Counted from the stretch's first letter, positions 3,481-59,575 are shown. The stretch is DNA of 64,000 bases from an uncultured bacterium (GCA_963848635.1 CAWKEA010000005.1:175341-239340), one strand, 5' to 3'. A program made the numbers and translations. Notes: generated from the letters alone by a model not told the origin.

Positions 3481-3503
3481 GTGTCAAGATGACATCTTGA
3501 CAC
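3481..3503. repeat. REP-like palindrome GTGTCAAGATGACATCTTGACAC (copy 1)
   Basis: Perfect 10-bp inverted arms in the comEC/LTD convergent gap. Same core as seven other loci. Confidence 0.8.
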
Positions 3504-3519
3504 GAAATTTAGATATATC

Positions 3520-4206
3520 TCACTTCGTTTTTTTTAACTTTTTTGAAAAAAACGGTGCGACAAAAGCCGCGCCATTCTCCGCTTTCGGAGTGCCCCCAAT
3601 AGCCGACGAAGTATGCCAGCCGAGCGTCTTTGGATCGCGCTCCATCGTCCTCTTGGTCGCGTCATCGCCCGCAGGCCATCTTGAGCTGGCAACAACCTGA
3701 TCGATCAAGGAACAATACCTGTCAAAGAGCCGGAAGCTGTCGCCGGCATTTTTGATTATGCCGACGAAAAAATTGTCCGCTTTGATGCTCGGCAAAAAAT
3801 CCATTCCGCCTCGTTCCAAAAGATAGAGCCCTCCCGCCGCGACCTTTGCCCCGCTCCGGAAGACGACTTTTATCTTGCCGCTCGCATTCGCGAGCTCCCA
3901 GCCGCCGATCGAAACAGTGCTCGAGGAGACGTTCTTGAGCTCGATCCACTCGTGATTCGAGCTCGTCGCATCGCCCATCCAGGCGATCTCGTTCATGATG
4001 ACAGGAACATGCTCCGGGATCTCTGTCGTGTCGAAAGCGCAGTTCGTGATCGGAGCCGTCGAAGCACTGCTTACGCCCGTCGATGAAGACGCTTGACCGA
4101 CGCTATCCACCAGATTTTTGACGCTGTTATTCCTTGAAAAATAAAAAGCCATCCCGGCAATAGCTAGTACTGTTATACAGGTGAGGATCGGGTGTTCGCT
4201 GAACAT
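3520..4206 (-). CDS. Lamin-tail-domain (LTD) protein with N-terminal membrane anchor
   Basis: 'NEIAWMGDATSSNHEWIELKN' is the LTD signature. N-terminal TM helix. 228 aa. Confidence 0.7.
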   Translation of the reverse strand: MFSEHPILTCITVLAIAGMAFYFSRNNSVKNLVDSVGQASSSTGVSSASTAPITNCAFDTTEIPEHVPVIMNEIAWMGDATSSNHEWIELKNVSSSTVSIGGWELANASGKIKVVFRSGAKVAAGGLYLLERGGMDFLPSIKADNFFVGIIKNAGDSFRLFDRYCSLIDQVVASSRWPAGDDATKRTMERDPKTLGWHTSSAIGGTPKAENGAAFVAPFFSKKLKKTK

Positions 4207-4250
4207 GAAAGTTATACGGCTTTATCTCCATCGATATCATCTACACGCGC

Positions 4251-4294
4251 AGTATACGAAAAATTCATTAAGAAAAGTTAAAATAATTCTAAAG
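4251..4294 (-). promoter_or_regulatory. Conserved promoter module, copy 2 (reverse orientation), upstream of the LTD gene
   Basis: Reverse complement reads ctttagaattattttaacttttcttaatgaatttttcgTATACTgcgcg, near-identical to copy 1 including the TATACT. Confidence 0.6.
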
Positions 4295-4316
4295 AAACCC
4301 TAAAATGACACATTAC

Positions 4317-4380
4317 ATAGGTCCGCATAGGTCGGACCTTGGTACATTGATATATAGGTCGCTATATAGGTCGGGCCTAT
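4317..4380. repeat. Cluster of four ATAGGTCG(G/C) motifs (two direct, one inverted pair)
   Basis: ataggtccgcataggtcggacc ... tatataggtcgctatataggtcgggcctat. Lies between the 4-gene operon end and the LTD promoter. Confidence 0.6.
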
Positions 4381-4433
4381 GTAAACTAAGAAAAAACCGC
4401 CCCGTTTTTAATGAGGTGGCCTATGATCGTCGG

Positions 4434-4946
4434 TTATTTCGTCGTGACAGAGAAATCGAGAGCTCGAACAGAAAGCTCCTGCGGCAAATAGCGTTTCTCG
4501 ATGCCCCAGCGGTCGCAGTTGCCATGCTCCCATCGCGCGCCAAACGATGATTCCCAACCATGGATGAAGTGAAGCGCACTGACTTTGCCGGAAAGGAATA
4601 CCTTCTCGTAAAAGTCATTCAGGATCGGCGTGCAATATTCTTCCGCCGGATTCTGTCTGTGCCATTCGAGGTAGAGCTCGACCATCTTATCCTCGAAAGG
4701 CATCTGGCTGAAGATATTCCGATGCGATTCGCCGATGAGGATCTCGATGACGCCTTCGAAGACTTTCCGATTGCCCTGAATAGTGCCGACGCCGCCAGTC
4801 GAGATCGGTCCAGACACCATTTCGGCTTTTCCAGGCGTACGGCGAAGGATATCGAGAGCGATCGCCGCCAAATCGACGAACGACTTCGCGTCCTTGAGAG
4901 CATCGTGATCCCGAGGGTTCCAATGTCTGTAATGTTCAATGTTCAT
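4434..4946 (-). CDS. Hypothetical protein, possibly SLOG / nucleoside 2-deoxyribosyltransferase-like (DUF4406-like)
   Basis: 170 aa. 'MVSGPISTGG' resembles the glycine-rich strand-1 loop of NDT-like / DUF4406 proteins. Assignment from memory of the family motif only. Confidence 0.45.
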   Translation of the reverse strand: MNIEHYRHWNPRDHDALKDAKSFVDLAAIALDILRRTPGKAEMVSGPISTGGVGTIQGNRKVFEGVIEILIGESHRNIFSQMPFEDKMVELYLEWHRQNPAEEYCTPILNDFYEKVFLSGKVSALHFIHGWESSFGARWEHGNCDRWGIEKRYLPQELSVRALDFSVTTK

Positions 4947-4993
4947 ATTGTCGAAAATCTACTCCACATACAGCTAAAATGCAAATCTAAAAA

Positions 4994-5362
4994 TCATTTT
5001 CCGGATCTGTGTTTTTTCTTGATATCCTTGTATTTTTTTGAGATATCACTTCCGCTGATAGCGCTTGGGGGATATTTCTTTGCGGCCGCCGAGAGCTTGT
5101 CATGAACGATCTCTCGGATATCGACGTTGAGGACGAGCGCCATCGCGATCGCATAGACGAAGACATCCGCCAATTCCTTGACGATCTCTTTCTTTATCCG
5201 TGGATCCTTTACGACCTCTTCGCCGAAGAAATTCTCCCACTGGAAATGTTCCAGCAATTCGGCGGCTTCGATGACGATCGATTTCGCCAAGTCCGCAGGA
5301 GGCTGATCGGACCAACCCCGCTCTGCCATGAATCTTTTGACTTCTTCTCTGGAGTTTTCCAT
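4994..5362 (-). CDS. MazG-like nucleotide pyrophosphohydrolase
   Basis: 122 aa all-alpha protein. 'EAAELLEHFQWE...ELADVFVYAIAMA' matches the MazG/HisE EExxE..D core. Confidence 0.7.
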   Translation of the reverse strand: MENSREEVKRFMAERGWSDQPPADLAKSIVIEAAELLEHFQWENFFGEEVVKDPRIKKEIVKELADVFVYAIAMALVLNVDIREIVHDKLSAAAKKYPPSAISGSDISKKYKDIKKKHRSGK

Positions 5363-5392
5363 GACGTTTTTTATGAGGGATATGCTAGCATT

Positions 5393-5767
5393 TCAGCTCT
5401 TAAAAAGATACTTGTTCATTATATATCCATTCTTGTCTTTCTTTTGTTCAAGGAGGATGCCTCCCGCTGATTCGATGACTTTTTTTGAAGGAAAATTAAG
5501 ATCGTCGCAGACGACTGTTATCCTAGCGATGCCAAGATCATGCGCTTGCGTGATCGTATCATTGAATAGTTTTGTTCCAAAGCCTTTGTGCTGAAAATCC
5601 GGATAGATTTCATAATAGATATGGCTCTCAAAACCTTCCGGCATTTCATCGCTTTTTTGCGCAGTGAGCCTTATTTGAGAATAACCGACCGGAATGTCGT
5701 CATCATTGAACAATCTATATACTAACGTATTCCCTTTATTGAGCTTTTCTTTAAATGCAAACCTCAT
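5393..5767 (-). CDS. GNAT family N-acetyltransferase
   Basis: 124 aa from an internal ATG (MRFAFKEK...). 'IYPDFQHKGFGTKLF' is the acetyl-CoA-binding motif A. The upstream part of the listed ORF is antisense to the next gene. Confidence 0.7.
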   Translation of the reverse strand: MRFAFKEKLNKGNTLVYRLFNDDDIPVGYSQIRLTAQKSDEMPEGFESHIYYEIYPDFQHKGFGTKLFNDTITQAHDLGIARITVVCDDLNFPSKKVIESAGGILLEQKKDKNGYIMNKYLFKS

Positions 5768-5769
5768 GG

Positions 5770-6612
5770 CTATATCTTGCACATCAACCGGGCCTCGTTG
5801 AGGATCTTGTCTGCCTTGACGCCTTTGACGCCAGCGTCTTCGAGATATCCGGGATATTTGACGAGATCGCGGCACAGGACGATGCCATTTTGGAAGAGGT
5901 TGCGGCGGATTTCGCCGTCGACGGAAGCGAGAATAGTGAAAGGATAGAGCGAAAGCTCCTCGATGATCTGGTGCAAATTGCCTGAATGCGGATAATTCCA
6001 GCCGATCAAGGGGAGTCCCGCGCATTGGGCGTACTTGATGGCTTCGGAAGTGAATTTGGTATTGGTGATGAGCCAGCCTTTCGAGAGCATGCGCTCGCGG
6101 CCGCCAAAGGTGAATTTACGGCTCGCGAGATCCTCGAAGCGCGCTTTGACGTACAGGGCGACTTTCAGATCGGACTTCAGGCCGAATTCATTGTGGAATT
6201 TAGCTTCGACCATATCGAGCTTGTCGTCTTTCCAGGCGACGACATCAATCTCGTGCTGGACGCAGTGGCCTTCGACGATGACATCTGTCGTCGTCTCGTA
6301 CCCCCAGGCCTTGAAGATTTCGGCCACGAATTTTTCGAACGGATAGCCGTTCGGTCCGAGCTCGGCCAAAGCGCGGCGCATGGAATACCGTGCGGCGGCA
6401 TGGTGCAGATTCGACGAGCGGAGGTAATCAAATGCTCGGGCATAGATGAGAGCCGTCGACATGCCGTCTTTTATTTCGCTCTCCACTCTGTCGACGATCT
6501 CCTCGATGGCTTCTTTCGATCCGCCGGCGGCTCGAAGCGATTCAATGAGCTTGTTCTCCTCGAAAAGCTCTTTTTCGCCGTTCGATTTTGTGACATTGAT
6601 GAGGCGATTCAT
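5770..6612 (-). CDS. ATP-cone domain fused to Mrr-like restriction endonuclease domain
   Basis: The N-terminal 'INVTKSNGEKELFEENKLIESLRAAG' is an ATP-cone. The C-terminal 'GHCVQHEIDVVAWKDDKLDMVEAKF' fits a PD-(D/E)xK Mrr_cat core. Confidence 0.65.
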   Translation of the reverse strand: MNRLINVTKSNGEKELFEENKLIESLRAAGGSKEAIEEIVDRVESEIKDGMSTALIYARAFDYLRSSNLHHAAARYSMRRALAELGPNGYPFEKFVAEIFKAWGYETTTDVIVEGHCVQHEIDVVAWKDDKLDMVEAKFHNEFGLKSDLKVALYVKARFEDLASRKFTFGGRERMLSKGWLITNTKFTSEAIKYAQCAGLPLIGWNYPHSGNLHQIIEELSLYPFTILASVDGEIRRNLFQNGIVLCRDLVKYPGYLEDAGVKGVKADKILNEARLMCKI

Positions 6613-6744
6613 TGGGAATATTGTAGCATGTCGCCCAAGAAAAAACCTTAGATAACTTGAAAAGAAAAACGTATATTTTATGTAAATAATTTCGCTTCTG
6701 TGTCCTTATCCCCACATTGTTCACTTTTCCGATTGCTTTTTCCC

Positions 6745-6772
6745 CTTGACCTATTTCGAGGCATGCTACAAT
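6745..6772 (+). promoter_or_regulatory. Putative sigma70-type promoter for dnaB (TTGACC-N15-tgcTACAAT), ATG at or near +1
   Basis: Read directly. Extended -10 TGnTACAAT. The ATG at 6779 follows 6 nt later. Confidence 0.35.
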
Positions 6773-6778
6773 CAGTGC

Positions 6779-8194
6779 ATGGCAGAGACGACAAAATCTC
6801 CTTACTACAAGACATCCGACCTGCGCATACCGCCGCAGTCGCTCGAGGCGGAGCGCGCTCTCCTCGGCTCGGTGATGATGCGGCCCGAAGTCATCCACGA
6901 GATCATCGATGTCGTCTCAGACAGGACCTTCTATTCGGATCGTCATCGCCTGATCTGGCTCTCTATGCTCGAGCTCCACCAAAAAGCCACGCCGATCGAC
7001 CTGCTCTCGCTCTCCTCGAGGCTCAAGGAAAAAGAACTGATCGAAACGGTCGGCGGCATGACCTATCTGACCGAATTGGTCCAAAGCGTGCCGTCATCGG
7101 CCAACGCGAAATATTACGCGGAGATAATCCAGAAGAAACAGCTCATGCGCGACCTCATCAGCGCCTCCGAATACATCGGCAATCTCGGCTTCGATCAGGA
7201 TGGAGACCTCGAAGAGACATTGGATAAGGCGGAAAAGAGGATATTTGACGTGACCAATTTTGCCGGCAGTCAGCACAAGTTCATCGCTCTGAAAGACACC
7301 CTCGTCGAAGCATGGGAGCGCCTCGAAAAGCTCCACGAGACTCGCGGCGAATTGCGCGGCATACCGACCGGCTACAAGGAGCTCGACAACAAATTAGCCG
7401 GCTTCCAAAAGTCAGACCTTATCATCCTCGCCGCCCGGCCATCCATGGGAAAAACGTCGCTCGCGCTCGACATCGCCCGCAAGGCGGCCGTCCTCCACAA
7501 TGTATCCGTCGGCATATTCTCCCTGGAAATGAGCTCGCAACAGCTCGTCGACCGCATGCTCGCGGCAGAAGCATCAGTCGACGCCTGGAAATTGCGCACC
7601 GGCCATAACTTGTCCATCGAGCACGATTTCAAGGCGATTCGCGACGCCATGGACCGCCTCTCAAAAGCGCCGATCTATATCGACGACCAGGCGGCCAACA
7701 ATATTCTAAAGATGCGCGCCGTCGCTCGCCGGCTCAAGAGCGAGAAAGGCCTCGGCCTTATCGTCGTGGACTACTTGCAATTGATGGTGCCGACGAATGC
7801 GCGCCACAACGACAACATGGTTCAGCAGGTCACTGAGATTTCGCGCTCGCTCAAACAGCTGGCGCGCGAATTGGAAGTGCCCGTCCTTGCCCTATCACAG
7901 CTGTCTCGCGCCGTCGAACAGCGCGGCGAAGGCGGCCGTCCGAAACTATCCGACTTGCGCGATTCCGGTTCCATCGAGCAGGACGCCGACGTGGTCATGT
8001 TCATCCATCGCGAGGACAAATACAACAAAGACTCGGGCAAGCCGAATATCGCCAATATCATCATCGAAAAGCACCGCAACGGCCCGACAGGCACGGTCGA
8101 ATTGTACTTTGACGAGAAGAAAACTACATTCCTTTCCATCGAAAAGGCCGATTTTGGAGATTTTGACAAAGGCGGGAACGATCAGCCATTTTAA
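6779..8194 (+). CDS. dnaB: Replicative DNA helicase DnaB
   Basis: N-terminal 'ERALLGSVMM' followed by Walker A 'ARPSMGKTSLAL' and the RecA-like core. 471 aa. Confidence 0.9.
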   Translation: MAETTKSPYYKTSDLRIPPQSLEAERALLGSVMMRPEVIHEIIDVVSDRTFYSDRHRLIWLSMLELHQKATPIDLLSLSSRLKEKELIETVGGMTYLTELVQSVPSSANAKYYAEIIQKKQLMRDLISASEYIGNLGFDQDGDLEETLDKAEKRIFDVTNFAGSQHKFIALKDTLVEAWERLEKLHETRGELRGIPTGYKELDNKLAGFQKSDLIILAARPSMGKTSLALDIARKAAVLHNVSVGIFSLEMSSQQLVDRMLAAEASVDAWKLRTGHNLSIEHDFKAIRDAMDRLSKAPIYIDDQAANNILKMRAVARRLKSEKGLGLIVVDYLQLMVPTNARHNDNMVQQVTEISRSLKQLARELEVPVLALSQLSRAVEQRGEGGRPKLSDLRDSGSIEQDADVVMFIHREDKYNKDSGKPNIANIIIEKHRNGPTGTVELYFDEKKTTFLSIEKADFGDFDKGGNDQPF

Positions 8195-8247
8195 TAATGT
8201 AAAATTAAAAAATCAAAAGGTAAAATGACATATTAAAATTTAAAAAT

Positions 8248-8556: not shown

Positions 8557-8577
8557 GTGTGACATAAGAACATCAAA

Positions 8578-8952
8578 ATGGAAAATGACAGAGAAAAATT
8601 CAAAAATGAATTCAAGAAAAGGTTGTATGCTTGGGTGTTACGACTTGTAAAATTCATTGATTCATTAAAGAAAGATTCAACTTCGTTAGTTATTGGCAAA
8701 CAGTTATTACGAAGCGGAACAAGCATTCTTGCCAACTATATCGAAGCACATTCTGCAAGCTCAAAAAGAGATTTCGGTAACTTTTTCAATCATTCACTTA
8801 AATCTGCAAATGAATCAAAGGTCTGGCTTGCAATAATTCGTGATACTGACAAAGGTAACCAGAGAGAAGTATCGTGGCTCTTGAAAGAGTTGACTGAAAT
8901 ATCAAATATCTTTGCTTCAAGTCTATTAACACTTCGAGGTAAAAAGAAATGA
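8578..8952 (+). CDS. Four-helix-bundle protein (TIGR02436-like; 23S rRNA intervening-sequence protein family)
   Basis: 'LVIGKQLLRSGTSILANYIEAHSASSKRDFGNFFNHSLKSANESKVWL' matches the family signature. Confidence 0.7.
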   Translation: MENDREKFKNEFKKRLYAWVLRLVKFIDSLKKDSTSLVIGKQLLRSGTSILANYIEAHSASSKRDFGNFFNHSLKSANESKVWLAIIRDTDKGNQREVSWLLKELTEISNIFASSLLTLRGKKK

Positions 8953-9012
8953 ATATTTTGTCATTTTACATTGTAATTTTCCCTTTTGATTTTTAATTTT
9001 TACATTCTTATT

Positions 9013-9645
9013 ATGGATCCCGTCAACAAACTCATCGAGCTCTTCTCCGAATTCCCCGGCATCGGGCCGAGGCAGGCGCGGCGGTTCGCGTATTTCATTT
9101 TGACGCGCAACAACGGCTTTTTGGATGATTTTACAAGGAATATCGCGGCGGCAAAGAAATCGTTGCGGGTTTGCTCGATGTGCCAGCGCTTCTTTACTTC
9201 TGCGGAGGGTAGACCTCCGCAGGCCGCAAAGACATGCCCCATCTGCTCTGACGACACGCGCGACCAGGCCAGCCTCATGATCGTCGCACGCGACAGCGAT
9301 TTCGAAGCGATAGAAAAGAGCGGCGTCTATCATGGCCTTTATTTCATCCTCGGCGGCAGTGTGCCGATCCTCGAAAAAGAGCCGGAAAAGAGAGTGCGAT
9401 TGGCGGAGCTCAAAAAGCGAGTGCAAGGCGTTGGTCAAGATGTCATCTTGACAGAGATCATCCTCTCTATGAGCGTCACGCCTGACGGCGAGCATACGGC
9501 AGAAGTCGTCAAAGCTTTCCTTGAAAAGTCGATCGACGCTGAAAAAGTCAAAATAACTGTCTTGGGCAAAGGCCTTTCGACGGGAACGGAGCTGGAGTAT
9601 TCTGATACGGAGACGCTCAAGAATGCGCTCAAAAATCGGGCTTGA
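9013..9645 (+). CDS. recR: Recombination protein RecR
   Basis: 'FPGIGPRQARRFAYF' HhH, C4 zinc finger 'CSMCQ...CPICSD', Toprim 'MIVARDSDFEAIEKSGVYHGLYFILGG'. Confidence 0.9.
   Translation: MDPVNKLIELFSEFPGIGPRQARRFAYFILTRNNGFLDDFTRNIAAAKKSLRVCSMCQRFFTSAEGRPPQAAKTCPICSDDTRDQASLMIVARDSDFEAIEKSGVYHGLYFILGGSVPILEKEPEKRVRLAELKKRVQGVGQDVILTEIILSMSVTPDGEHTAEVVKAFLEKSIDAEKVKITVLGKGLSTGTELEYSDTETLKNALKNRA
9434..9452. repeat. REP-like palindrome GTCAAGATGTCATCTTGAC inside the recR CDS (encodes GQDVILT)
   Basis: Perfect palindrome in-frame within recR. Confidence 0.8.
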
Positions 9646-10976: not shown

Positions 10977-11714
10977 TCAAACGCTGAGCGCCATATATTC
11001 CAAAAGCTGTTTTACGGATGCCGCGCGATCGCGGAGATATGATTCGGTTCGCGCGATGGCGGCAAGAGGAGCGGCGTTCTTTTCGATGCCGCTGTCATGC
11101 AAAAGCTTCGAGAGATCCGCGCAGAATTCGAGAGCGGCGCTTTTCGGCTTTTTGCCGTCAGAGATATCCGCGGATAGCTTGTCGGCAAAGGCGACGCGGC
11201 TAGCCAGCGGTGAAGCGAGAAAATCCCGTACGAGATCCGATCTCGTGGCCGATACAAGATCCGATCTTGTAGTCCGCACCATGTAAAGCCTCGAACGCAC
11301 CGTCGGCAGGAGCGATTCATCCGAAGGTATGACGATGAAAAAAAGCGCGTACCCGTTCGGCTCCTCGAGCATCTTTAAAAGAGCGTTTTGCGCTTCGTGC
11401 GTGATCGAACGGATCACGATGACAAAAAATCTCCGAGCGACATCGCCGCCCCGCGAAGAGAACGGCCGCGTGGCGTGCATATCCTTTAGCTCGCGGGCAT
11501 CGTCGATGGTCAGAATTTCATACGTACGGACGAAGACGTCGGGATTGCCTTGAATTGAGACGCCCTGCTTTTCCTTTAAAAAAGAAAGTATCTCTAGTTG
11601 CGCGTCTTCAGCGCCGACGATGCAGTAGGCATGATGAGAAAGATTTCCGAGCGATTGCGATAGTTCCATGCCAGCTATTGTATCAAATAGTCCCGGCAAA
11701 ATCTGTCTCTTCAA
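10977..11714 (-). CDS. holB: DNA polymerase III delta' subunit-like protein
   Basis: 'THEAQNALLKMLEEPNGYALFFIV' matches the delta'/clamp-loader box. Contains an in-frame tandem 'TRSDLVSATRSDLV' encoded by the AGATCCGATCT repeat. Confidence 0.7.
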   Translation of the reverse strand: MKRQILPGLFDTIAGMELSQSLGNLSHHAYCIVGAEDAQLEILSFLKEKQGVSIQGNPDVFVRTYEILTIDDARELKDMHATRPFSSRGGDVARRFFVIVIRSITHEAQNALLKMLEEPNGYALFFIVIPSDESLLPTVRSRLYMVRTTRSDLVSATRSDLVRDFLASPLASRVAFADKLSADISDGKKPKSAALEFCADLSKLLHDSGIEKNAAPLAAIARTESYLRDRAASVKQLLEYMALSV

Positions 11715-14437: not shown

Positions 14438-14953
14438 TTATTGACGGCTTTTTGGCTCCATATCCTTTGTAAGTTTGAAGACGAGCTTGCCCTTCAATTT
14501 GCCCTGATATTTTGGAGACGACATGAGAGCCAGTGTCTCGTCGAGCCCTTCCACAGCTTCAGGTGATCTCTCTAGCTTGTAATGATTGAGAGCATAGCCC
14601 TGCTTTAAATACTCCTTCAAGACACCTGTCGCCCATATGCGGAATTGAGTGGCTTTTTTGGAATTAACCCGATAACCGACAGCGATAATGGCGTCGAGGT
14701 TATAAAACTTCGTATCTCGTTTTACCTTGCGACCGCTTTCGTTTTGAACTATTCGGAATTTCCGAATAGTTGAGATTTCATCTAACTCATCTGTCATGAA
14801 TATATTTTTCAAATGTTCATTGACTGTTGGAACGCTTATTTCAAACAAGTCGCTGATCTGTGCTTGCGTTGCCCAAATGGTGTCCTTTTCGATATCCGCC
14901 CGCAATTCGACGTTACCATCCTTGTCCTCAAAAATGACGATGTTGTTTTTCAT
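14438..14953 (-). CDS. RhuM-family protein
   Basis: 'KFRIVQNESGRKVKRDTKFYNLDAIIAVGYRVNSKKATQFRIWATGVLKEY' matches RhuM (PF13310). AT-rich island. Confidence 0.75.
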   Translation of the reverse strand: MKNNIVIFEDKDGNVELRADIEKDTIWATQAQISDLFEISVPTVNEHLKNIFMTDELDEISTIRKFRIVQNESGRKVKRDTKFYNLDAIIAVGYRVNSKKATQFRIWATGVLKEYLKQGYALNHYKLERSPEAVEGLDETLALMSSPKYQGKLKGKLVFKLTKDMEPKSRQ

Positions 14954-15295
14954 AGTTATGAAAATAATTAATTAGTAAAAAATCACCGGCTGATTTTGCC
15001 AGACACAAGCGACATCAGTAGAGAAAAAGTGGATGTCGAAATCAAACTACGCTGCGAGGATAAATAAACGAGATGATAGCGTGGGGATAGTATAGCAGAA
15101 ATCTGGGAGAAATACAGAAACCGCAACATTTCTGCTGCGGTTTCGCGTTCTGCCACCGAAGCGACAGAAAGTATGTATGTATAATAGCGCGCTGTGAGCA
15201 AATGTCAAGGGAAGTTTTGGGATATTGGAAGTGCAATCAGTCTAGGCTGCCTCAGGCTTTTGCCAAGCGGGGTTTTTGATTTTGGTCTTATATAA

Positions 15296-34220: not shown

Positions 34221-36035
34221 ATGGAAATCCGTAATATCGCTATCATAGCCCACGTCGACCACGGCAAGACGACGCTCACCGACGCCATCATGACCCAATG
34301 CGGCCATGCCGACGAGGGATCGATGGACTCGAACGCGCTCGAACAGGAGCGCGGCATTACGATATATGCAAAAAACACCTCGATCATCTATCCCTCGCCG
34401 GGCTCGGGACGTCCCGCCACCAAGATCAACATCGTCGACACGCCAGGCCACGCTGATTTCGGTTCAGAGGTTGAACGCGTGCTCCGCTCGATCGACACCG
34501 TTCTCCTCGTCGTCGACGCCCAGGAAGGCCCGATGCCGCAGACGCGCTTCGTTCTGAAAAAATCGCTTGAGCTCGGTCTTAAGCCGATCGTCGTCATCAA
34601 CAAGATAGACAAAGCCGCCGCGGATCCAGAACGCACCCATAACGAGGTGCTCGAGCTTTTTATCGAGCTCGGCGCGCACGATTCTCAGATAGATTTCCCC
34701 GTCATATACGCCATAGGCCGCGAAGGAGTGGCAAAGAAAACGTTAAAGGAAGGATTCAAGGACATCACACCGCTTTTGGACACGATACTCGAGCATGTCC
34801 CGCCGGCGAACAAGGATTCAAATGCGCCTTTGACAGCGCAAGTCTTCAACCTCAGCTACGACAATTTCCTCGGACGCCTCGCCGTCGCGCGCATCTATGA
34901 TGGAACTATAAAAGACGGTCAGAATGTCTGGATAAAGGACATAGACGGAAAATCATTCACAGGAAAAGTGACCAAGCTCTTCACCTTCGACGGCAAGAAG
35001 CGCCTCGAAGTGCCGCAAGCCGAATCAGGCGACATCATCACGGTGGCCGGCATCCCGGATATTTACATTGGCGAGACTATTGCTGATAGCGAGTCGACGA
35101 CGCCCTTGACCGCGATCAAAGTCGACGAGCCGACGATTTCACTCCAATTCCTCGTCAATAGCTCCCCTTTTGCAGGCCGCGAAGGCACGTTCGTCACCGG
35201 TCGCCAGATACGCGAGCGGCTTGAGCGCGAGCTCGAAACGAACGTCGGGCTGAAAGTCGATTTCTCGTCGAACGAATACTTCACCGTCTACGGCCGTGGC
35301 GAGCTTCACATCGCCATCCTCATCGAGAACATGCGCCGCGAAGGCTATGAGCTCCAGGTATCTCAGCCGAAAGTCATATTAAAGGAAGAGGGCGGCAGGA
35401 CATTCGAGCCTTTCGAAGAGGTCATCATCGATACGCCACAGGAATATTCAGGCCCGATCATCGAGACCCTCGGCAAGAGAAAGGGCGTCATGACAAATAT
35501 GACGAACCACGGCAACCAGGCGCGCCTCGTCTTCGAGATACCGACGCGCGGATTGCTCGGATATCGCAACGCTTTCACCATCGACACCAAAGGCGAAGGC
35601 ATCATGTCGAGCCGCTTCATCGAATTCCGCGAGCATGCCGGCCAGATCGAAAAGCGCGAGACCGGCTCCATGACATCCATGGCCTCCGGCAAATCGCTCG
35701 GCTTCTCGCTCTGGAATCTCCAGGATCGCGGACGCCTCTTCATCGGCCCGGCTGTCGAAGTCTATGAGGGCATGGTCATCGGCGACACCGCAAAAGGAGA
35801 CGACCTCGACGTCAATCCGACCAAGGGCAAACAGCTCTCGAACATGCGCTCGTCCGGCAAGGACGAGGCCCTCATGCTCGTGCCGCCATTTGAATTGTCC
35901 ATCGAGCGCGGTCTCGAACTGATGCGCGACGACGAATATCTCGAGATCACGCCGAAATCCGTCCGCCTGCGCAAGAAATTCCTGACCGAGCTCGATCGCG
36001 CGAAAGCAGGCAGGAAGGACGGGACGCTGAAATAG
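34221..36035 (+). CDS. typA: Translational GTPase TypA/BipA
   Basis: '[20 protein letters not shown]' G1, 'DTPGHADF' G3, then EF-G-like domains. 604 aa. Confidence 0.9.
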
Positions 36036-36158
36036 TTAGTGGTTTGTTAGAGGTCTACCCTCACACTCAGGTCTCACTCTGGACGGACCTGGGCCAATTT
36101 AAATCACGAACGAAATGCCGCCTCACGGTCAGTTTTCTTTTTTTGCTCTTTTTCTAAA

Positions 36159-36268
36159 TATAACCAATTGGTTATATATGCAAACTAATATAAATATTTG
36201 GGCTCGAATACCGCTAAATGACGGCTGTCATTTTTGCTCTTTATTGAAATATAACCAATAGGTTATAA
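36159..36268. repeat. Two copies of a ~58-bp direct repeat each centred on palindrome TATAACCAATTGGTTATA (second copy TATAACCAATAGGTTATA)
   Basis: Read directly in a 685-bp ORF-free convergent intergenic region. Confidence 0.7.
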
Positions 36269-36475
36269 ATTTAAAATCACATAAAATATTGCACCGCGGC
36301 CTGGAGGATAAAAAATGAACCCGGCACGCGCTCGGGGTTTTTGTATTAAATGAATATAAATTAAGGGCTGAAACTTTCGTTCCAGCCCTTGTTGAATCTT
36401 GCTGATCGCTTACGTTGCCATCTCCCCGTCAACTGTAATGATTTTTGTCATGTAAAAATGGTAGCATTTATTGTA

Positions 36476-36493
36476 CGAGATGTCATCTTGACG
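36476..36493. repeat. Degenerate REP-like copy CGAGATGTCATCTTGACG
   Basis: The surrounding 'ttgtacgagatgNcatcttga' matches the RAYT 5' flank at 58951-58973. Confidence 0.6.
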
Positions 36494-37114: not shown

Positions 37115-37870
37115 TTAAAACTCTCCAATTTTTGTCCTCTTTATAGAAAAAGCAAAAGCGACGGTGCCGGCTCCTCTTCCGATCCGTTCCGCGAGACTGC
37201 GCATGTAGGTGCCGCTTGTGCATGCAACACGAAGCTTAATTAAAGGAAAATCAACGGCGCCATATTCCCTTCCAAATTTTTTCCAGCCGGTGATTATCTC
37301 TTCTTGCCGAAAATCGCCATTCACTTTTGTTATATTCCCTATTGCTTGCGCGGCGATGTCACTGCCGCTCAATAAATCCGCCTGTTTCGAGCTTTTTTCA
37401 TGGCTGCGGCCGGCAAGCCCTTTACCTATTTCTTCTATCGAATATATCTCGACCTCTTTTGTCGGCATCTCATCGGGCAATTCACCAGTTCGAGCGAGAG
37501 AGTGGAGCTGGCGGCCATCAACTGTCTTTGAAGAATACGCCGGATAAGCCTGCATGAACTTGCCGCAGAATTTTGTCTGTACGAGATGACATCTCGTACA
37601 GACAACTTTGGTTATCAGCCCGAGCGCATCTCCAGTGTCAGTTTCGATGCCAAAAAGCACCTCGACCTCATACTCCTTGTCCAGACCGAGATATTTTTCT
37701 TTTTCCTTGCACTCGTCGCCGACGAGCGCCAAAAGCTTGCCGCAGGCAAGCGGGTCAAGCCGGCCAGCATACGTCATCGGCACATCTGCGGCAATGCCAT
37801 TTTCAAGCCGCGCCCTTTCGAGGCATTCGAGCGGCGTTTTGCCGATTTCTTTATTTAATATCAGCTTCAT
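37115..37870 (-). CDS. truB: tRNA pseudouridine(55) synthase TruB
   Basis: 'AGRLDPLACGKLLALVGD' with the catalytic Asp, plus the TruB core. Confidence 0.85.
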   Translation of the reverse strand: MKLILNKEIGKTPLECLERARLENGIAADVPMTYAGRLDPLACGKLLALVGDECKEKEKYLGLDKEYEVEVLFGIETDTGDALGLITKVVCTRCHLVQTKFCGKFMQAYPAYSSKTVDGRQLHSLARTGELPDEMPTKEVEIYSIEEIGKGLAGRSHEKSSKQADLLSGSDIAAQAIGNITKVNGDFRQEEIITGWKKFGREYGAVDFPLIKLRVACTSGTYMRSLAERIGRGAGTVAFAFSIKRTKIGEF

Positions 37871-42543: not shown

Positions 42544-43221
42544 TTATATATTCTTGAACCGTTCAATCGTCTCGACGACATTCTCGCTCTCGAATATTGC
42601 CGAACCGATAATGAGGCGGTCTGCGCCGGCGGCGCGCAAAAGCGGCGCTGTTTCGAGATTGACGCCGCCGTCGATCTGGATTTCAAGATCCGGATATTTT
42701 TCCTTCGCTTCTTTTATCTTTGCGATGACTTTTTCATCGAAAGACTGACCTTGGAAACCGACGTTATCTATGCCCATGAGTTGGATGTATTTTATAGTGC
42801 ATTCGCGTATCTTGTCTTTGTATCTTTCAAGAACGTCGATCGGCGTGTCGATGTTCAAAGCCAGCCCTATCTCTACTTTTCCTAATAGTTTTTCAATAGC
42901 GTCCGCTATATTTCCCTTGGCTTCAGTGTGAAGCACGATGCGAGAGGCTCCAGCAGCGACATATGTCAAGATGTCATCTTGACAGTTATTCACCATCAGA
43001 TCGAACTCGTATTCGATTTCTTCCCAATATGGCATGCCACGATCCTCATGCGCAATGGCTTCAAAATTCGCGTCGGGCTTTTTATACGGCCAGCTGGGTG
43101 ACGGCGTGAATTGCCCGTCGCAGATGTCGATTTGGACAAGAGGAACGAGGCCTTTGACTCGAGCGACGTGCTCCTCGAGGTCGGCAAAGTCTTTTGGAAG
43201 GATGGCGGGAATTATTTCCAT
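42544..43221 (-). CDS. rpe: Ribulose-phosphate 3-epimerase-like protein
   Basis: TIM-barrel 'IPAILPKDFADLEEHV...VQIDICDGQF' and C-terminal 'IQIDGGVNLETAPLLRAAGADRLIIGSAIF'. Contains a REP palindrome in frame. Confidence 0.7.
   Translation of the reverse strand: MEIIPAILPKDFADLEEHVARVKGLVPLVQIDICDGQFTPSPSWPYKKPDANFEAIAHEDRGMPYWEEIEYEFDLMVNNCQDDILTYVAAGASRIVLHTEAKGNIADAIEKLLGKVEIGLALNIDTPIDVLERYKDKIRECTIKYIQLMGIDNVGFQGQSFDEKVIAKIKEAKEKYPDLEIQIDGGVNLETAPLLRAAGADRLIIGSAIFESENVVETIERFKNI
42964..42984. repeat. REP-like palindrome TGTCAAGATGTCATCTTGACA inside the rpe CDS
   Basis: Perfect 10-bp arms. Confidence 0.8.
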
Positions 43222-54377: not shown

Positions 54378-54430
54378 AAGACATTGGGTCATTTGGCAAT
54401 TGATTCGGTATTTGGCGGTACTAATGATTA

Positions 54431-54604: not shown

Positions 54605-54657
54605 AACCCGCGTTTAATGCTTGGGAAGCACTCGTTTTGCCACTAAACTAATCTCGC
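54587..54657 (-). tRNA. tRNA-Gly(CCC)
   Basis: Reverse-strand fold: acceptor GCGAGAT/ATCTCGC, loop TTCCCAA, T-arm GCGGG/CCCGC. Confidence 0.85.
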
Positions 54658-54671
54658 GTTCGCCGCTTTTT

Positions 54672-55058
54672 TTAAAAGACATTTCCAAACCATTCACCGG
54701 CACTTTGCCAAAACGTCATGTGCGTCGTCGTCGCTGTGGCACTAGCCGCGCTATCAATGATGACGGCCAGCGATTCACCTGGCTTGACGATGCGAAAATC
54801 GGTGCGCATGACGGTTTCAGTGCCGGAAGCGGTCGAAAGCTCTGCGATCGACTGCGACAAATTTCCCTCCTGTGTTTTGAGGGCGTCAAACTGATCTTCG
54901 GCCTCGCTGAGACGGCTTTTTGACAGATCATATTTTTCATGGATGCTCCATGTCGCTCGAGCCAACAAGACTACCACGAGCCCGAGGACGATGATCGCCA
55001 CGGGAGAATAGAGCAGGCGCTTCGCCTTGCGTCGAGATTTGAATTGGTTTATGGCCAT
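54672..55058 (-). CDS. Septum-formation initiator-like protein (FtsB/DivIC-type: TM helix plus coiled coil)
   Basis: 128 aa. N-terminal TM 'VAIIVLGLVVVLLA' then coiled coil. Assignment by architecture only. Confidence 0.45.
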   Translation of the reverse strand: MAINQFKSRRKAKRLLYSPVAIIVLGLVVVLLARATWSIHEKYDLSKSRLSEAEDQFDALKTQEGNLSQSIAELSTASGTETVMRTDFRIVKPGESLAVIIDSAASATATTTHMTFWQSAGEWFGNVF

Positions 55059-55606
55059 AGTTTATGATTGAAGATCGATAGTTTGAATTGGGATCTTGAT
55101 ATGCGCGAGCAGAAGATTTCAAATCTACAATTTAAATCGTCAATTTCTCGATCGCTTGCGCGGACCGGCCTTTATAGTATACTACACGGCACAACAATCA
55201 TGCTTTTCCACAAGACAACCCGCAAGGTGCTCAACTGGACCATCATGGCTATCGGCATACTCGTCATCTTGAGCATGCTGATGCTTTATTTTCCAGCGCT
55301 CTGGCAGTCATAATCAGATCAAACACGCGTATTTAACATGTTAGACATCTGCTGATGTCTAACAGAATAAGGCTACGAAATTCAATAAGATCGGAATTAC
55401 ACAGATTTCGTTGACTTTTTCCGAGCTTAGGTATAGCTTTTTATCAGATAACCAAACGAAAGGACTTTACAATGAAAAAGAACATCGACCTCAAACCGTG
55501 ATTCAAGGATCAAAAGGCTCGTAAGATACGAGCTTCCAAAGCTAAAAAAGCTTATGAGGCCGAAATAGCAGGCCTCTTAAAATTCTATAAGAAGGCGAAA
55601 GACAAG

Positions 55607-56266
55607 GTGACCAAATTGATTCGTTCAGGCCAAACCACCGGCAATCGATTGACGGACGAAGTCATATTGCTGAGGGGCCTCGATGGTGACGCGATCGCCC
55701 GAATCAATGCATTCAGTGCAGATTGGTCCCTCGGCCAGGAGGTCTTGATCAGTGTACCGCGACTAAAGTGCACCAGGCATGTATTCATACCCACACCGGG
55801 ACACGATAATGAGTACGTCACTTTGATCGGCTACATATATGGAATTCCGTCGGGCGAAGGCATCATGGTCAATGGGAAGGGCAAAGAGCATCCAGCGGGA
55901 TTTGAAATCATCCTGCCCTTCAAACGCTATGTCATGTGGGACTTCGAACATATGAATACGGTCACCCCCGCCGAAGGACCGTTGGTTGTTGATGGAAACA
56001 TATTTGTCAGTCCAAGCGCTGAAAGATTGCTTGATGCCATCATTTCGGACGGAACACCCATATCGCTCGAGAAAATCGAGAAAAGAATGTTGCATCGATC
56101 GGATATTTTGACACCGGAAATTAAAATAACGATCATCAGCAAGGATAAAGACAGGCTTCCTGCTGAACACCGCGGAGAGACGCAGACGCATACGGCTCTC
56201 GAACACGGGCGTCGGGAAATCCAGGAATCAACGCCAGGCGAAAAGATCGCCGGCGGAGGCATCTGA
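55607..56266 (+). CDS. Hypothetical protein
   Basis: 219 aa. No motif recognised. Confidence 0.5.
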   Translation: MTKLIRSGQTTGNRLTDEVILLRGLDGDAIARINAFSADWSLGQEVLISVPRLKCTRHVFIPTPGHDNEYVTLIGYIYGIPSGEGIMVNGKGKEHPAGFEIILPFKRYVMWDFEHMNTVTPAEGPLVVDGNIFVSPSAERLLDAIISDGTPISLEKIEKRMLHRSDILTPEIKITIISKDKDRLPAEHRGETQTHTALEHGRREIQESTPGEKIAGGGI

Positions 56267-56418
56267 AATTCAGAAATAAACTGCCTCGCAGCAAGCTGCG
56301 GAGTAGTTACTCGTTTGTTCCGTCGTCGCTCGGACGTTGTGTACGAGAATACTCGTCCACACGTTCCTCGCTAGCCGGAATAAAAGCTTCCTCAGAGAGT
56401 TCCGCAAGGGACTCTTTT

Positions 56419-58293
56419 TTATTCCCCCGCCCGCATCATCTTTACAAAAACCTCCTGCGGTATATTAACCGAACCGTGCTCTTTGAGGCGCTTGCGGCCC
56501 TCTTTTTGCTTTTCGCGGAGCTTCATCTTGCGGGTGATGTCGCCGCCGGAAAGCGTGCCTGCGGCGTCCTTTTTCTTGCCAGAAACCGTGCGCGACGAGA
56601 TGATGCGGCCGAGAGCCTTGGCTTGGACCTTGAACGTAAAGAGCTCTCGCGGCAAAATTTTATAAAGCTTTTCGACGACTTCCTCGGCCTCCTGCTCGGC
56701 ACGGCGGCGCGAGACGACACGAGTGAAAGCGACCACAGGCTCGTCGGCTACAAGGATATCCATTCGGACGACATCGGCCGGACGGCTGTCGGTTATGTCA
56801 TACGAGATCGAGGCATAGCCGGACGAAACGCTCTTTGCCTCATCGAAAAAATTACGCATGAGCTCGCGCAAAGGCATGCGCAGAGTGAGCATCGTCCTGT
56901 TGTCGCCAAAATTATCCGTGCCTGTTATCTCCCCTTCATGATCGTAGAGCAATTTCATTATTCCTCCGATATACGCCGGCGGCGTGATTATCTTCATGGT
57001 GACGATCGGTTCGACCACTGACTTGACCTCGTTCTCGTCCGGAAAAAGAGCAGGCGAATAGATCGTGACCATTTTTCCATCCTTTTTTTCGACAATGTAC
57101 GTGATCGACGGCGTAGTGACGACAAGGTTCAAGTTGAATTCGCGATGCAGGCGCTCGGTTATTATCTCCATATGCAACATGCCGAGAAAGCCGCAACGAT
57201 AGCCTTTGCCCAACGTGCCCGAAGCCTCTTCTTCATAGGTAAAGGAAGAATCAGACAAGCGCAAACGGCCAAGAGCCTGACGCAAGAGCGCGAGATCGTC
57301 CTGCGATTCTGGATAGACAGACGCCCAGACGACGGGCCGAGGGCTCTGATAGCCGGGCATAGGCGCCTGCGTATCCTTGAGCGACGCAACGGTGTCTCCG
57401 ACAGACGCGACGCCCGGCTCCTTTATCCCTGTGACGATATAGCCGATCTCGCCCGCTGAAAGCGATTCCATCGGGACATTGTCAGGAGAAAAGATGCCGA
57501 CCTCGAGCGCTTCGAACGCGCGCTTTGAATTCTTGAAGATGAGCTTGTCGTGACGGCGAACCGAGCCCTGCATGACGCGCACATAGACGATGACGCCGGT
57601 GTGATTGGAATATTGGAAGTCAAAGATGAGGGAGCGGAAGGCTGAATTATCTGAGCTTCGCGACGGAAGAGTCTCGCCCTGCGTCGGCGGCGGCACCCGC
57701 TTTATCACCTCTTCCAACAGATGCGCCACGCCTTCGCCTGTCTTGCCGGAGACTTTCAAGATGTCCTCAGGCTTGCAGTCAAGAAGCTGGCAGACTTCAT
57801 GGACGACTTCTTCGGTCATGGCAAGCGGCGAGTCGATCTTTGAAACCGTCGGGATGATGGTGAGACCTGCTTCTCGTGCCATCGCGAGCGTCGTCAAGGT
57901 CTGCGCTTGGACGCCCTGCGTCGCATCGACAAGAAGAATGGAACCTTCGACGGCCTTCAGCGCGCGCGAGACTTCATAGGAAAAATCGATGTGGCCGGGC
58001 GTGTCGATGAGGTTGAGGATGTATTCTTGATCATCTTTGCCTTCAATCACTGGTCCTTGATCTTCAGTTTTGAATTTTGAGTTTTGAGCTTTCAGTTTCC
58101 ATTTCATTCTGACCGGTTGCATCTTTATCGTGATCCCCCTCTCGCGCTCGAGCTCCATGCTGTCGAGGACTTGCTCCTGCATCTTGCGCTTTTCGATGGT
58201 GCCGGTTATCTCGAGCAGACGATCGGCAAGAGTGCTCTTGCCGTGGTCGATGTGAGCTATGATGCTGAAATTGCGTATATGAGATGAATCCAT
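56419..58293 (-). CDS. lepA: Elongation factor 4 (LepA) with short in-frame low-complexity insertion in the G domain
   Basis: 'IIAHIDHGKSTLADRLL', 'DTPGHIDF', C-terminal LepA-specific domain. Insertion 'KWKLKAQNSKFKTEDQGPVIEGKDDQ' before 'YILNLIDTPGH'. Confidence 0.9.
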   Translation of the reverse strand: MDSSHIRNFSIIAHIDHGKSTLADRLLEITGTIEKRKMQEQVLDSMELERERGITIKMQPVRMKWKLKAQNSKFKTEDQGPVIEGKDDQEYILNLIDTPGHIDFSYEVSRALKAVEGSILLVDATQGVQAQTLTTLAMAREAGLTIIPTVSKIDSPLAMTEEVVHEVCQLLDCKPEDILKVSGKTGEGVAHLLEEVIKRVPPPTQGETLPSRSSDNSAFRSLIFDFQYSNHTGVIVYVRVMQGSVRRHDKLIFKNSKRAFEALEVGIFSPDNVPMESLSAGEIGYIVTGIKEPGVASVGDTVASLKDTQAPMPGYQSPRPVVWASVYPESQDDLALLRQALGRLRLSDSSFTYEEEASGTLGKGYRCGFLGMLHMEIITERLHREFNLNLVVTTPSITYIVEKKDGKMVTIYSPALFPDENEVKSVVEPIVTMKIITPPAYIGGIMKLLYDHEGEITGTDNFGDNRTMLTLRMPLRELMRNFFDEAKSVSSGYASISYDITDSRPADVVRMDILVADEPVVAFTRVVSRRRAEQEAEEVVEKLYKILPRELFTFKVQAKALGRIISSRTVSGKKKDAAGTLSGGDITRKMKLREKQKEGRKRLKEHGSVNIPQEVFVKMMRAGE

Positions 58294-58372
58294 GAAAGTG
58301 TCTCGTATACTAGCAGAAAACATTGAAAAAAGCAGGTTTTACAAGGTGGCGCCTCAATCGCGAACAAGGTAG

Positions 58373-58397
58373 CATGTCAAGATGACATCTTGACATG
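58373..58397. repeat. REP-like palindrome CATGTCAAGATGACATCTTGACATG (12-bp arms)
   Basis: Read directly, between lepA and the RRM gene. Confidence 0.8.
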
Positions 58398-58472
58398 GCA
58401 TTGCAACAAAAAACCGCCCAAACTTTTACATTTGCGCGGTTCTTTGTTTTTGACGAGAGGTACGCTCTGTCT

Positions 58473-58748
58473 TTAGCGCGCCATGCGAGGAGCGCGAGGC
58501 TCCATCGGGCGTGCTTCGTTGACGGTAAGCGCTCTTCCATCCATTTCCTTGCCATTGAACATATCAATAGCCTTGGCAGCCTCGTCATCCGCGGACATTT
58601 CCACGAATCCGAAACCCTTTGAACGGCCGGTCATCTTGTCTATGATAACCGTTGCTGATGCGACTGCGCCTGCTTGCTCAAAATAAGTCTTGAGCGAAGC
58701 GTCGTTAGTCGTATAAGGCAGATTGCCTACATATAGCTTTTTTGCCAT
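58473..58748 (-). CDS. RRM-domain RNA-binding protein
   Basis: RNP-2 'LYVGNLPY' and RNP-1 'KGFGFVEM'. 91 aa. Confidence 0.8.
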   Translation of the reverse strand: MAKKLYVGNLPYTTNDASLKTYFEQAGAVASATVIIDKMTGRSKGFGFVEMSADDEAAKAIDMFNGKEMDGRALTVNEARPMEPRAPRMAR

Positions 58749-58849
58749 TTTTCTTTATAACCCTCGTCTTTTACAATAACGGTAAGCGATGAGGAAAACT
58801 TACACCCTGGCATCATAGCACAGAGCGGCTATTTTTGCAAGTTTTGCGT

Positions 58850-58870
58850 CGTCAAGATGACATCTTGACG
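58850..58870. repeat. REP-like palindrome CGTCAAGATGACATCTTGACG (upstream flank of the RAYT gene)
   Basis: Perfect 10-bp arms. Confidence 0.8.
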
Positions 58871-58890
58871 TACTGCTCTGCTGCTCTGCT

Positions 58891-58949
58891 CTTTTCTTTA
58901 TAATTCTTTATAATTATTTTAATATTTCTTAATAACCGGTCTGTATAAT
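58891..58949 (+). promoter_or_regulatory. Conserved promoter module, copy 5, with TATAAT -10, upstream of the RAYT gene
   Basis: cttttctttataattctttataattattttaatatttcttaataaccggtctgTATAAT. Confidence 0.5.
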
Positions 58950-58976
58950 TTTGTACGAGATGACATCTTGAACATC

Positions 58977-59573
58977 ATGCACATAATCGGCGAACGATAT
59001 CACGTCTACAATCGCGGCGCGCATAAAGCGCCTATTTTCAATGACTCAGGCGACTATGATCGACTTATGGCGTTGCTATATATCGCCAACACCTCAAAAA
59101 GGCTCGTTTTCAGCAGAATAAAGGAGGGCGACATTTTCTCGATCGAAAGGCCTGACACCCTCGTCGGAATATTCACCTATTGCCTCATGCCGAACCATTT
59201 ACATATCGGCATGGTTGAAAAAGAAGAAGATGGCATCGAACGATTCCTGAAAAAGCTCGGCATAGCGTACGGCATGTACTATAACAAAAAATATAGCCAT
59301 TCCGGCACTTTGTTTCAAGGCGCATGCAAATGCAAACATATAGACAGCCAAGAATACCTGCAATATCTCATCGAATACATACATTTGAACCCATTTGGAA
59401 TCGAGGAACCGGATCTCTTAAAAGAAGCCAGGCGTGAGCTTCGCGACGAAGCGGTCGCATTCTCGAAAAATTACAGATATTCGAGCTTCATGGATTATCT
59501 TGGCGTCAAACGCCCAGAAAACGCGATTTTGTGTCAAGATAACATCTCGCACAGCGTCAAGATGACATCTTGA
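58977..59573 (+). CDS. REP-associated tyrosine transposase (RAYT; IS200/IS605 TnpA-like HUH-Y1 enzyme)
   Basis: 'HVYNRG' N-terminus, HUH 'LMPNHLHIGM', catalytic Tyr in 'LQYLIEYIHLNP'. Flanked by REP copies at 58850, 58956 and 59555. The last one overlaps the stop. Confidence 0.75.
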   Translation: MHIIGERYHVYNRGAHKAPIFNDSGDYDRLMALLYIANTSKRLVFSRIKEGDIFSIERPDTLVGIFTYCLMPNHLHIGMVEKEEDGIERFLKKLGIAYGMYYNKKYSHSGTLFQGACKCKHIDSQEYLQYLIEYIHLNPFGIEEPDLLKEARRELRDEAVAFSKNYRYSSFMDYLGVKRPENAILCQDNISHSVKMTS

Positions 59574-59575
59574 CG
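59555..59575. repeat. REP-like palindrome CGTCAAGATGACATCTTGACG overlapping the RAYT stop codon; a degenerate copy sits at 59530-59552
   Basis: Perfect 10-bp arms. Confidence 0.8.

Follow-up and report, generated by a model that had tools for sequence, protein, structure and literature searches.

A 64,000-nucleotide stretch of DNA from an uncultured bacterium (GCA_963848635.1 CAWKEA010000005.1:175341-239340; hereafter the window) probably carries a system of repetitive extragenic palindromic (REP) sequences and their REP-associated tyrosine transposase (RAYT), or REPtron, that belongs to a Patescibacteria-specific clade and is housed in an ultra-small bacterium of the Patescibacteria, or Candidate Phyla Radiation (CPR). 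We base this reading on a repeat family dispersed through the window, on the single HUH/Y1 gene that the repeats bracket, on the RAYT-like fold of its product, and on homologous loci that display the same layout with palindromes specific to the lineage or paralogue. To our knowledge, work on REP-RAYT systems has been confined almost entirely to Proteobacteria, in which the repeats are by definition extragenic. An earlier note, made from the sequence alone, had proposed such a system here, and it is supported by three perfect copies around the gene, by the HUH and tyrosine motifs and by the TnpA_REP-like fold.

The palindrome family and the RAYT-like transposase

The palindrome family in the window is real. 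The perfect 19-mer GTCAAGATGWCATCTTGAC (REP-A) occurs six times, with starts at 3483, 9434, 42965, 58376, 58851 and 59556, and was not matched once in 100 dinucleotide-preserving shuffles of the window. When their own flanks are included, a palindrome scan shows the six copies to be perfect palindromes of 19 to 25 bp, as the earlier note had it, with coordinates that were right to within 1-3 bases. A looser search together with the palindrome scan added four variant copies and three further related palindromes. There are about ten copies in 64 kb, or roughly one per 6-10 kb; three perfect and two variant copies lie 15-55 kb away from the RAYT gene, where none is expected. Folded as single-stranded DNA, the perfect copies have energies between -8 and -15 kcal/mol and z-scores between -3.7 and -8, and the hybrid copies described below fold weakly. 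An Rfam scan gave no match at the palindromes and reported only six tRNAs. GC skew showed no clear trend or switch along the window, so that the orientation of the centre base is not relatable to the direction of replication.

The gene in question encodes a RAYT-like HUH/Y1 single-strand DNA transposase of 198 amino acids (58977-59573, plus strand). It had been described as the only HUH-Y1 gene of the window, and indeed tblastn searches with the transposase family detected this gene alone, with neither a second copy nor a remnant. Three perfect copies surround it: the 25-bp form CATGTCAAGATGACATCTTGACATG at 58373-58397, between lepA and an RRM-protein gene; a 21-bp copy at 58850-58870, in the spacer between the RRM-protein gene and the RAYT gene; and the 23-bp copy GCGTCAAGATGACATCTTGACGC at 59554-59576, whose 19-bp core (59556-59574) includes the transposase stop codon (TGA, 59571-59573), an overlap already recognized in the earlier note. 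Inside the copies at 58851 and 59556, and with the one at 58376 further out, the gene is held between two imperfect hairpins that are mutually inverted. The first, TACGAGATGACATCTTGAA (58954-58972), carries a G-T mismatch and ends 4 nt ahead of the start codon, and the second, the degenerate copy GTCAAGATAACATCTCGCA (59533-59551), lies in the 3' end of the open reading frame (ORF). Together with the adjacent copy at 59554-59576, the latter can form an extended hairpin of the doublet kind (-15.8 kcal/mol, z -5.5), and the final ~14 codons of the gene (CQDNISHSVKMTS and the stop) come from palindrome copies. At the two ends, TTGTACGAGATGACATCTTGAAC sits four bases ahead of the ATG, the last RAYT codons read CTGTGCGAGATGTTATCTTGACAC on the other strand, and the reverse complement of the 3' end, TGCGAGATGTTATCTTGAC, can be set against the 5' flank TACGAGATGACATCTTGAA.

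A copy of the same type as the 5' flank copy, TACGAGATGTCATCTTGAC, is found at 36474-36492, between typA and a small, unassigned minus-strand ORF, with no Pfam-supported gene over it; the two have TTGTACGAGATGNCATCTTGA in common. The partial copies previously placed at 36476 and 58956 are both real, the former with the TTGTACGAGATGNCATCTTGA of the RAYT 5' flank. In the hybrid copies, at the RAYT gene ends and at 36474, the left arm is of the GTAC type and the right arm is REP-A, and they look like products of exchange between these two types. Every copy in the earlier list was recovered, but the list had overlooked two variant copies (37573-37605 and 59533-59551) as well as the palindromes at 9200-9222 and 11230-11271.

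The RAYT-like protein displays the HUH motif (H74/H76, in CLMPNHLHIG) and a catalytic tyrosine (Tyr134, in YIHLNP), and all three residues are invariant in an alignment of 54 homologues (CLMPNHxH, YIHLNP). We found 119 homologues; all those with a source name come from Patescibacteria or from an unclassified bacterium, and some carry the JGI label "REP element-mobilizing transposase RayT". A single-sequence search of the protein against PDB sequences returned noise only. The profile of the 54-homologue alignment had as its best PDB match the E. coli TnpA_REP (4ER8, E 0.006), followed by ISDra2 TnpA, and the alignment to 4ER8 pairs the HUH motifs with each other and YIHLNP with YIYINP. The AlphaFold (AF2) model, with a pLDDT of 91, also retrieved 4ER8 first in Foldseek (E 3e-6), then the IS608, ISDra2 and IS200 transposases; its fold matches include 4ER8, 2A6M and 2XO6.

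TnpA_REP and IS200/IS605 enzymes are described as recognizing a folded single-stranded DNA hairpin, beside which the tyrosine cleaves before the strand is transferred (PMC8266576; PDB 4ER8). By analogy, the window enzyme is predicted to bind the short hairpins formed by the palindromes on single-stranded DNA; its catalytic tyrosine would cut beside the hairpin, and rejoining of the strands would spread the palindromes through the chromosome, presumably by action on the lagging-strand template as for IS200/IS605. The RAYT gene would itself stay single-copy, bracketed by its own substrates, and we infer that it mobilises the GTCAAGATG family.

Homologous loci and the repeats that accompany them

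The bracketing layout of the window is common to seven homologous loci (L010, L011, L015, L018, L064, L041 and L055). In homologues from other Patescibacteria, a palindrome or a doublet stands just ahead of the start codon and another lies over the stop codon. In L010 (P0002, 79% identical) the repeat is GTACAAGGT-NNN-ACCTTGTAC, present at both gene ends and several more times within 20 kb, and in L011 (P0006, 74% identical) it is GTACAAGGG-NNN-CCCTTGTAC, with ~13 others in 15 kb. The Taylorbacteria homologue (P0037, L015/L017) has CCGAGGTGGAACCTCGG-TA-CCGAGGTTCCACCTCGG doublets before the start and over the stop, which occur also in ligA and in a spacer. L018 (P0053) carries GGAGGTCCGACCTCC doublets, and in L064 (P0061) doublets of TCAAGGTGGCACCTTGA stand ahead of the ATG and across the TGA; these two loci are on one contig, ~11 kb apart, their proteins are 56% identical and their palindrome types differ. 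The L064 palindrome departs from that of the window at the centre base and at a single stem pair, in which the change is compensated. No obvious flanking REPs were seen at the P0110 homologue (38% identical) of another organism.

The exact 19-mer also occurs in other organisms. A scan of species-representative genomes gave eight matches, a number close to that expected by chance over the entire collection, but six of these are in Patescibacteria; on a Saccharibacteria contig (L004) the 19-mer lies ~85 bp from a RAYT homologue. In metagenomes we found it on 39 contigs, among them two (L031 and L056) that come from the organism of the window itself, at 99% identity, and two (L041 and L055) on which a RAYT homologue is bracketed on both sides by the exact 19-mer, and it was not found in a scan of viral contigs. 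The consensus of 38 oriented copies is CATGTCAAGATGACATCTTGACATG, the form present at 58373-58397, with a symmetric CATG...CATG extension in which the centre base alone is free.

An autonomous insertion sequence (IS) of the IS200 type, in which the gene and two subterminal hairpins move together and leave behind solo ends or miniature derivatives as the scattered palindromes, is an improbable reading of these loci. The protein does belong to the same Y1/HUH superfamily, with the IS608 and ISDra2 TnpA as next-best fold matches, imperfect hairpins are present at the gene ends, and the homologues occupy differing genomic neighbourhoods across lineages. However, the gene is single-copy in the window and has left no remnants, its flanking hairpins are inverted rather than direct, and symmetric, and the repeats far outnumber it. 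For the 516-kb source contig as a whole the evidence is weaker: P0001 is the only listed homologue whose longest contig is 515,952 bp, a hint that this contig has no second homologue. Moreover, the succession of RRM gene, RAYT and LamG gene is in partial synteny between the window and the locus of the 79% homologue, which suggests vertical descent, and the presence on a single contig of two diverged paralogues with separate repeats is the RAYT pattern. The IS200/IS605 hallmarks that the earlier note had named as counter-evidence are missing in the window: we found no tnpB beside the RAYT gene, whose neighbours are the RRM and LamG proteins identified by Pfam, and no left end (LE)/right end (RE)-type ends.

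Several observations concern the surroundings of the homologues. The RRM-type gene adjoins or lies near RAYT in the window (58473-58748, minus strand) and in L010 (7206-7481), which may be coincidence or conserved synteny; in L019 an RRM-type gene (4381-4656) is followed by a GTTGAAGGGTAGACCTTCAAC hairpin. Around the 79% homologue, L010 holds many toxin-antitoxin/nucleotidyltransferase pairs (AbiEii, HepT/MNT-like, HicAB; 3416-7090 and 14764-15252). The Taylorbacteria RAYT has a pilin gene of a type IV pilus cluster on either side, and a run of GACTA repeats comes after its 3' REP doublet (~10750-10800 in L015/L017).

Repeats within coding sequence

Away from the RAYT locus, six of the eight palindromes of the window are located inside genes (two each in recR and the holB-like gene, one each in rpe and truB), and none of the genic copies disturbs the reading frame. 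Of the three palindrome frames, two are in use. One, GT CAA GAT GNC ATC TTG AC, is open on both strands and encodes Q-D-[DV]-I-L-T; the other, G TCA AGA TGT CAT CTT GAC, encodes S-R-C-H-L-D. The third frame contains the TGA that serves as the transposase stop codon. The in-frame copies that the earlier note had reported in recR (GQDVILT) and rpe (CQDDILT) were confirmed, both genes being identified by Pfam; its view that REPs are tolerated in coding DNA was right as to the frame, but the rpe copy replaces native codons without change of length and is not an insertion. Distant solved structures were too coarse to tell insertion from replacement in recR, rpe and truB, and close orthologues were used for this purpose.

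The clearest case is rpe (42544-43221, minus strand), where a 21-bp REP-A copy (42964-42984) takes the place of 21 native bases. The 83% identical orthologue of L019 lacks the palindrome, a comparison that the earlier note had proposed, and reads CCA GAA GAC GTC GTT CTC GAT where the window reads TGT CAA GAT GAC ATC TTG ACA. In this patch 12 of 21 bases differ from L019, and the flanking codons differ at synonymous positions only; so many differing bases amid near-identical codons are too many for stepwise drift. The native stretch (CCAGAAGACGTCGTTCTCGAT in L019) already forms a weak palindrome, GAAGACG-T-CGTTCTC, centred on the same position. At the same codons, the rpe of L062 has the same 21-mer with another centre base, that of L063 has TCCAAGATGCCATCTTGGA, which is perfect and in which the outer stem is changed on both arms, and that of L065 has a decayed copy of its contig's own TACAAGATGCCATCTTGTA. 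In a bootstrapped neighbour-joining tree calculated with the patch masked, P0123 was placed next to P0130 (79%) and P0128 next to P0142 (94%), both of these neighbours being REP-less. Descent of all REP-bearing rpe alleles from a single event was rejected, these alleles being monophyletic in 0 of 200 bootstrap replicates.

In recR (8986-9645, plus strand), the REP-A copy (9434-9452) lies in the linker between KKRVQG and EIILS, whose length in the orthologues runs from 3 residues to over 50. Relatives do not all lack a palindrome here: the closest one, L060 (90% identical), has a different palindrome, CGGAGATCGGATCTCCG, at the linker site, and the window is 12 nt longer. In many orthologues the linker encodes GLPLYK..TRATLVQ, whose back-translation fits the GTACAAGGG palindrome. 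A family-C palindrome, CTGCGGAGGGTAGACCTCCGCAG (9200-9222), lies in the recR zinc-finger loop, where it encodes SAEGRPPQ; it is the same in the window and in L060, and nearby codons differ at synonymous sites. As an intergenic control we used the spacer between the convergent comEC (1172-3463, plus strand) and LTD-domain gene (3520-4206, minus strand), where the window has a 23-bp perfect REP-A palindrome (3481-3503) and L060 has none.

The truB gene (37115-37870, minus strand) carries in frame the REP-A2 variant TTGTCTGTACGAGATGACATCTCGTACAGACAA, a 33-bp perfect palindrome (37573-37605) with arms TACGAGATG that encodes VVCTRCHLVQT. The segment is of variable length, and the window version is the shortest in the orthologue alignment. 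We note that the closest truB orthologue, P0360 (77%), has two large insertions, one of which, with GTRVALVQKSNRGLPSARK, resembles the REP-encoded peptides of the recR linker. The holB-like gene (10977-11714, minus strand) contains an in-frame family-B doublet, ACGAGATCCGATCTCGT (11230-11246) and TACAAGATCCGATCTTGTA (11253-11271), that by our own reading of the minus strand encodes QDRILY..RDRISY.

Insertions are evident in relatives. The gatB of L011 has two in-frame arrays (8576-8652 and 9333-9426) of three 28-bp REP units, 84 bp each, whose units are each read in a different frame (VQGLPLYK, STRATLVQ and QYKGYPCT); it seems that only arrays totalling a multiple of three survive. In ligA of L015, a 36-bp doublet is inserted. 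Further genomes have the exact 19-mer in frame inside murB, trmD, atpG, dus, pheT, topA and comEC, and the dus gene that carries it has 27 bases where a REP-less orthologue has 21. Ordinary insertion into such variable loops, with later selection for frame, suffices for the recR linker, truB, gatB and ligA.

For rpe we favour a different route, in which the enzyme, or short-patch recombination between repeat copies, would swap the native quasi-palindrome for a genuine REP. More generally, and rather speculatively, RAYT or REP recombination may overwrite native quasi-palindromes in essential genes with the current REP type, in register and without change of length, and independent lineages may have undergone this time and again at identical codons, which would constitute an undescribed hairpin-swap mode of HUH enzymes. 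If so, REPs would contribute peptides to the proteome that recur and evolve in concert (QD[DV]ILT and SRCHLD; PLYK..TLVQ in relatives).

Sites for a dimeric protein or for DNA uptake, of the uptake-sequence or parS-like kind, could also arise in place by point mutation and drive, with the proximity of RAYT being secondary. The perfect symmetry with a free centre base, the identical 19-mer in distant Patescibacteria lineages, the length-neutral rpe copy with intermediate or variant forms at the same codons, and the presence of comEC directly upstream of one copy are all in keeping with this. We nevertheless regard it as quite unlikely, and less probable than the insertion sequence: the palindrome type tracks the RAYT homologue, and does so even where two paralogues share a contig, the gatB and ligA genes of relatives contain three-unit tandem arrays and doublets that are clear insertions, the density in the window is well under that of known uptake sequences, and the rpe patch is too far from its 83% orthologue for stepwise drift. 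That the palindromes are unrelated hairpins, such as terminators or chance palindromes with a common core, is effectively refuted by the shuffles, by identical 19-25-mers within four housekeeping genes and by the same sequence flanking RAYT homologues elsewhere, even if terminators would be expected at two of the sites, 3483 and 58376, which are located between gene ends.

Limits of the REP-RAYT reading and relation to known systems

A number of observations weigh against the REP-RAYT reading or limit it. While profile and fold searches both place 4ER8 first, as had been expected for a RAYT rather than an IS200 protein, the scores with curated models are under their cut-offs (19.9 bits against 23 for Pfam Y1_Tnp, and 24.6 bits against 80 for NCBIfam REP_Tyr_transpos, the curated RAYT model), which makes the RAYT-like protein a member of a divergent clade and not a canonical one. 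The 19-mer does flank the gene, as the earlier note had stated, but the copies that touch the gene ends are hybrid, and the closest RAYT homologues (79% and 74%) carry another palindrome, GTACAAGG[TG]. Conversely, the RAYTs of L041 and L055, which are bracketed by the exact 19-mer, are only 36-38% identical to that of the window and belong to another subgroup. The pairing of repeat and enzyme is thus not simply co-phyletic and the cognate pairing is uncertain; it may be that REP-A is cross-used by the window RAYT or that a further RAYT lies beyond the window. Position counts of the 38 oriented copies showed neither a GTAG nor a CGTC tag beside the palindrome. When 11 palindrome variants were aligned on their centre, the AG...CT core was invariant and seven of nine stem pairs had changed on both sides, but the sequences had been picked as palindromes, so that this covariation shows the variants to be related and is no independent proof of structure. 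The dispersed copies are mostly genic, unlike classical "extragenic" REPs, and 37 rpe orthologues (60-83% identity) have no indel at the palindrome site, where simple transposition predicts a change of length. Finally, the counts of copies and genes cover the 64-kb window, out of a source contig of 516 kb.

The REPtrons of Proteobacteria (E. coli TnpA_REP 4ER8, Pseudomonas, Stenotrophomonas) are the closest parallel. They share with the window an HUH/Y1 gene, present once in these 64 kb, that is bracketed by its scattered hairpin repeats, bracketing copies that are mutually inverted, REPIN-like doublets, found here in the relatives, and a separate repeat for each RAYT paralogue. They differ in that the window protein belongs to a divergent, Patescibacteria-specific clade under the curated cut-offs, in that the window palindrome is symmetric and lacks the GTAG/CGTC tag, the conserved unpaired tag reported beside the REP hairpin (PMC3733652), in that the start and stop of the window RAYT abut or lie in repeats, and in that the dispersed copies are mostly coding and the repeat types do not strictly follow the RAYT phylogeny. 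Perfect-palindrome REP groups have already been described, and the RAYT classifications in these papers rest on cultivated or complete genomes (PMC5581495, PMC6006769, PMC8266576). A literature search aimed at RAYT/REPIN in Patescibacteria found no paper linking them. Loose annotations of the protein family as RayT-like already exist; the repeat family, its genic habit and the recurrent length-neutral replacement appear undescribed.

Other systems resemble this one in part. The IS200/IS605 family (IS200, IS608, ISDra2) has the same catalytic fold, motifs and single-stranded DNA hairpin substrates, whereas the window has no multiple gene copies, no tnpB and no asymmetric direct LE/RE, and its hairpins spread without the gene. 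Rickettsia palindromic elements (RPEs) are insertions of ~100-150 bp, for which we know of no cognate transposase. They are similar to the genic repeats of the window in being in-frame palindromic repeats that add or alter peptides in housekeeping proteins (for context, PMC1779305), and different from them in that the window units are of 19-33 bp, have a putative cognate RAYT and include one length-neutral case. The DNA uptake sequences (DUS) of Neisseria, the uptake signal sequences (USS) of Pasteurellaceae and the cyanobacterial HIP1 are likewise short motifs tolerated in particular frames, which may arise without indels and sometimes form paired hairpins. They are, in contrast, far denser and not linked to a transposase, and here the repeat type tracks RAYT and there are clear insertions and arrays. 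Known uptake sequences occur at about 1 per kb.

What is unusual in the window is that repeats have been written into recombination, translation and central-metabolism genes of a gene-dense, reduced Patescibacteria genome, and that the same rpe codons are occupied by lineage-specific repeat variants in orthologues which the gene tree keeps apart. Should this prove general, a mobile-DNA system would shape protein sequence in the Candidate Phyla Radiation; the palindromes would be natural markers for strain typing and could break metagenome assemblies; and the length-neutral cases would offer a concrete set of substrates bearing on how RAYTs spread REPs, a question described as still open in the field (PMC8266576).

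The remaining genes near the copies, named by Pfam unless stated otherwise, are typA (34221-36035, plus strand), lepA (56419-58323, minus strand; named from the ORF translation and not from a Pfam search) and the LamG protein (59584-61764, minus strand). Directly upstream of recR is a gene of the PF05635 family of 23S rRNA intervening-sequence proteins (8578-8952). Another palindrome, ATATAACCAATTGGTTATAT, is present in the long region after typA (36158-36177), with a one-mismatch copy 90 bp off (36252-36265), and it is extended to 36 bp downstream of recR in L060 (10757-10792); an operator is one possible identity for it, a further repeat family another. The LamG-domain protein beside the RAYT gene contains three long, near-identical internal repeats (GHSDASPSAPGIVSTSCSSGLTCGLVGYWTFDGKDINW...), and is followed by a second LamG protein (61761-62684) with an N-terminal pilin-type methylation motif.

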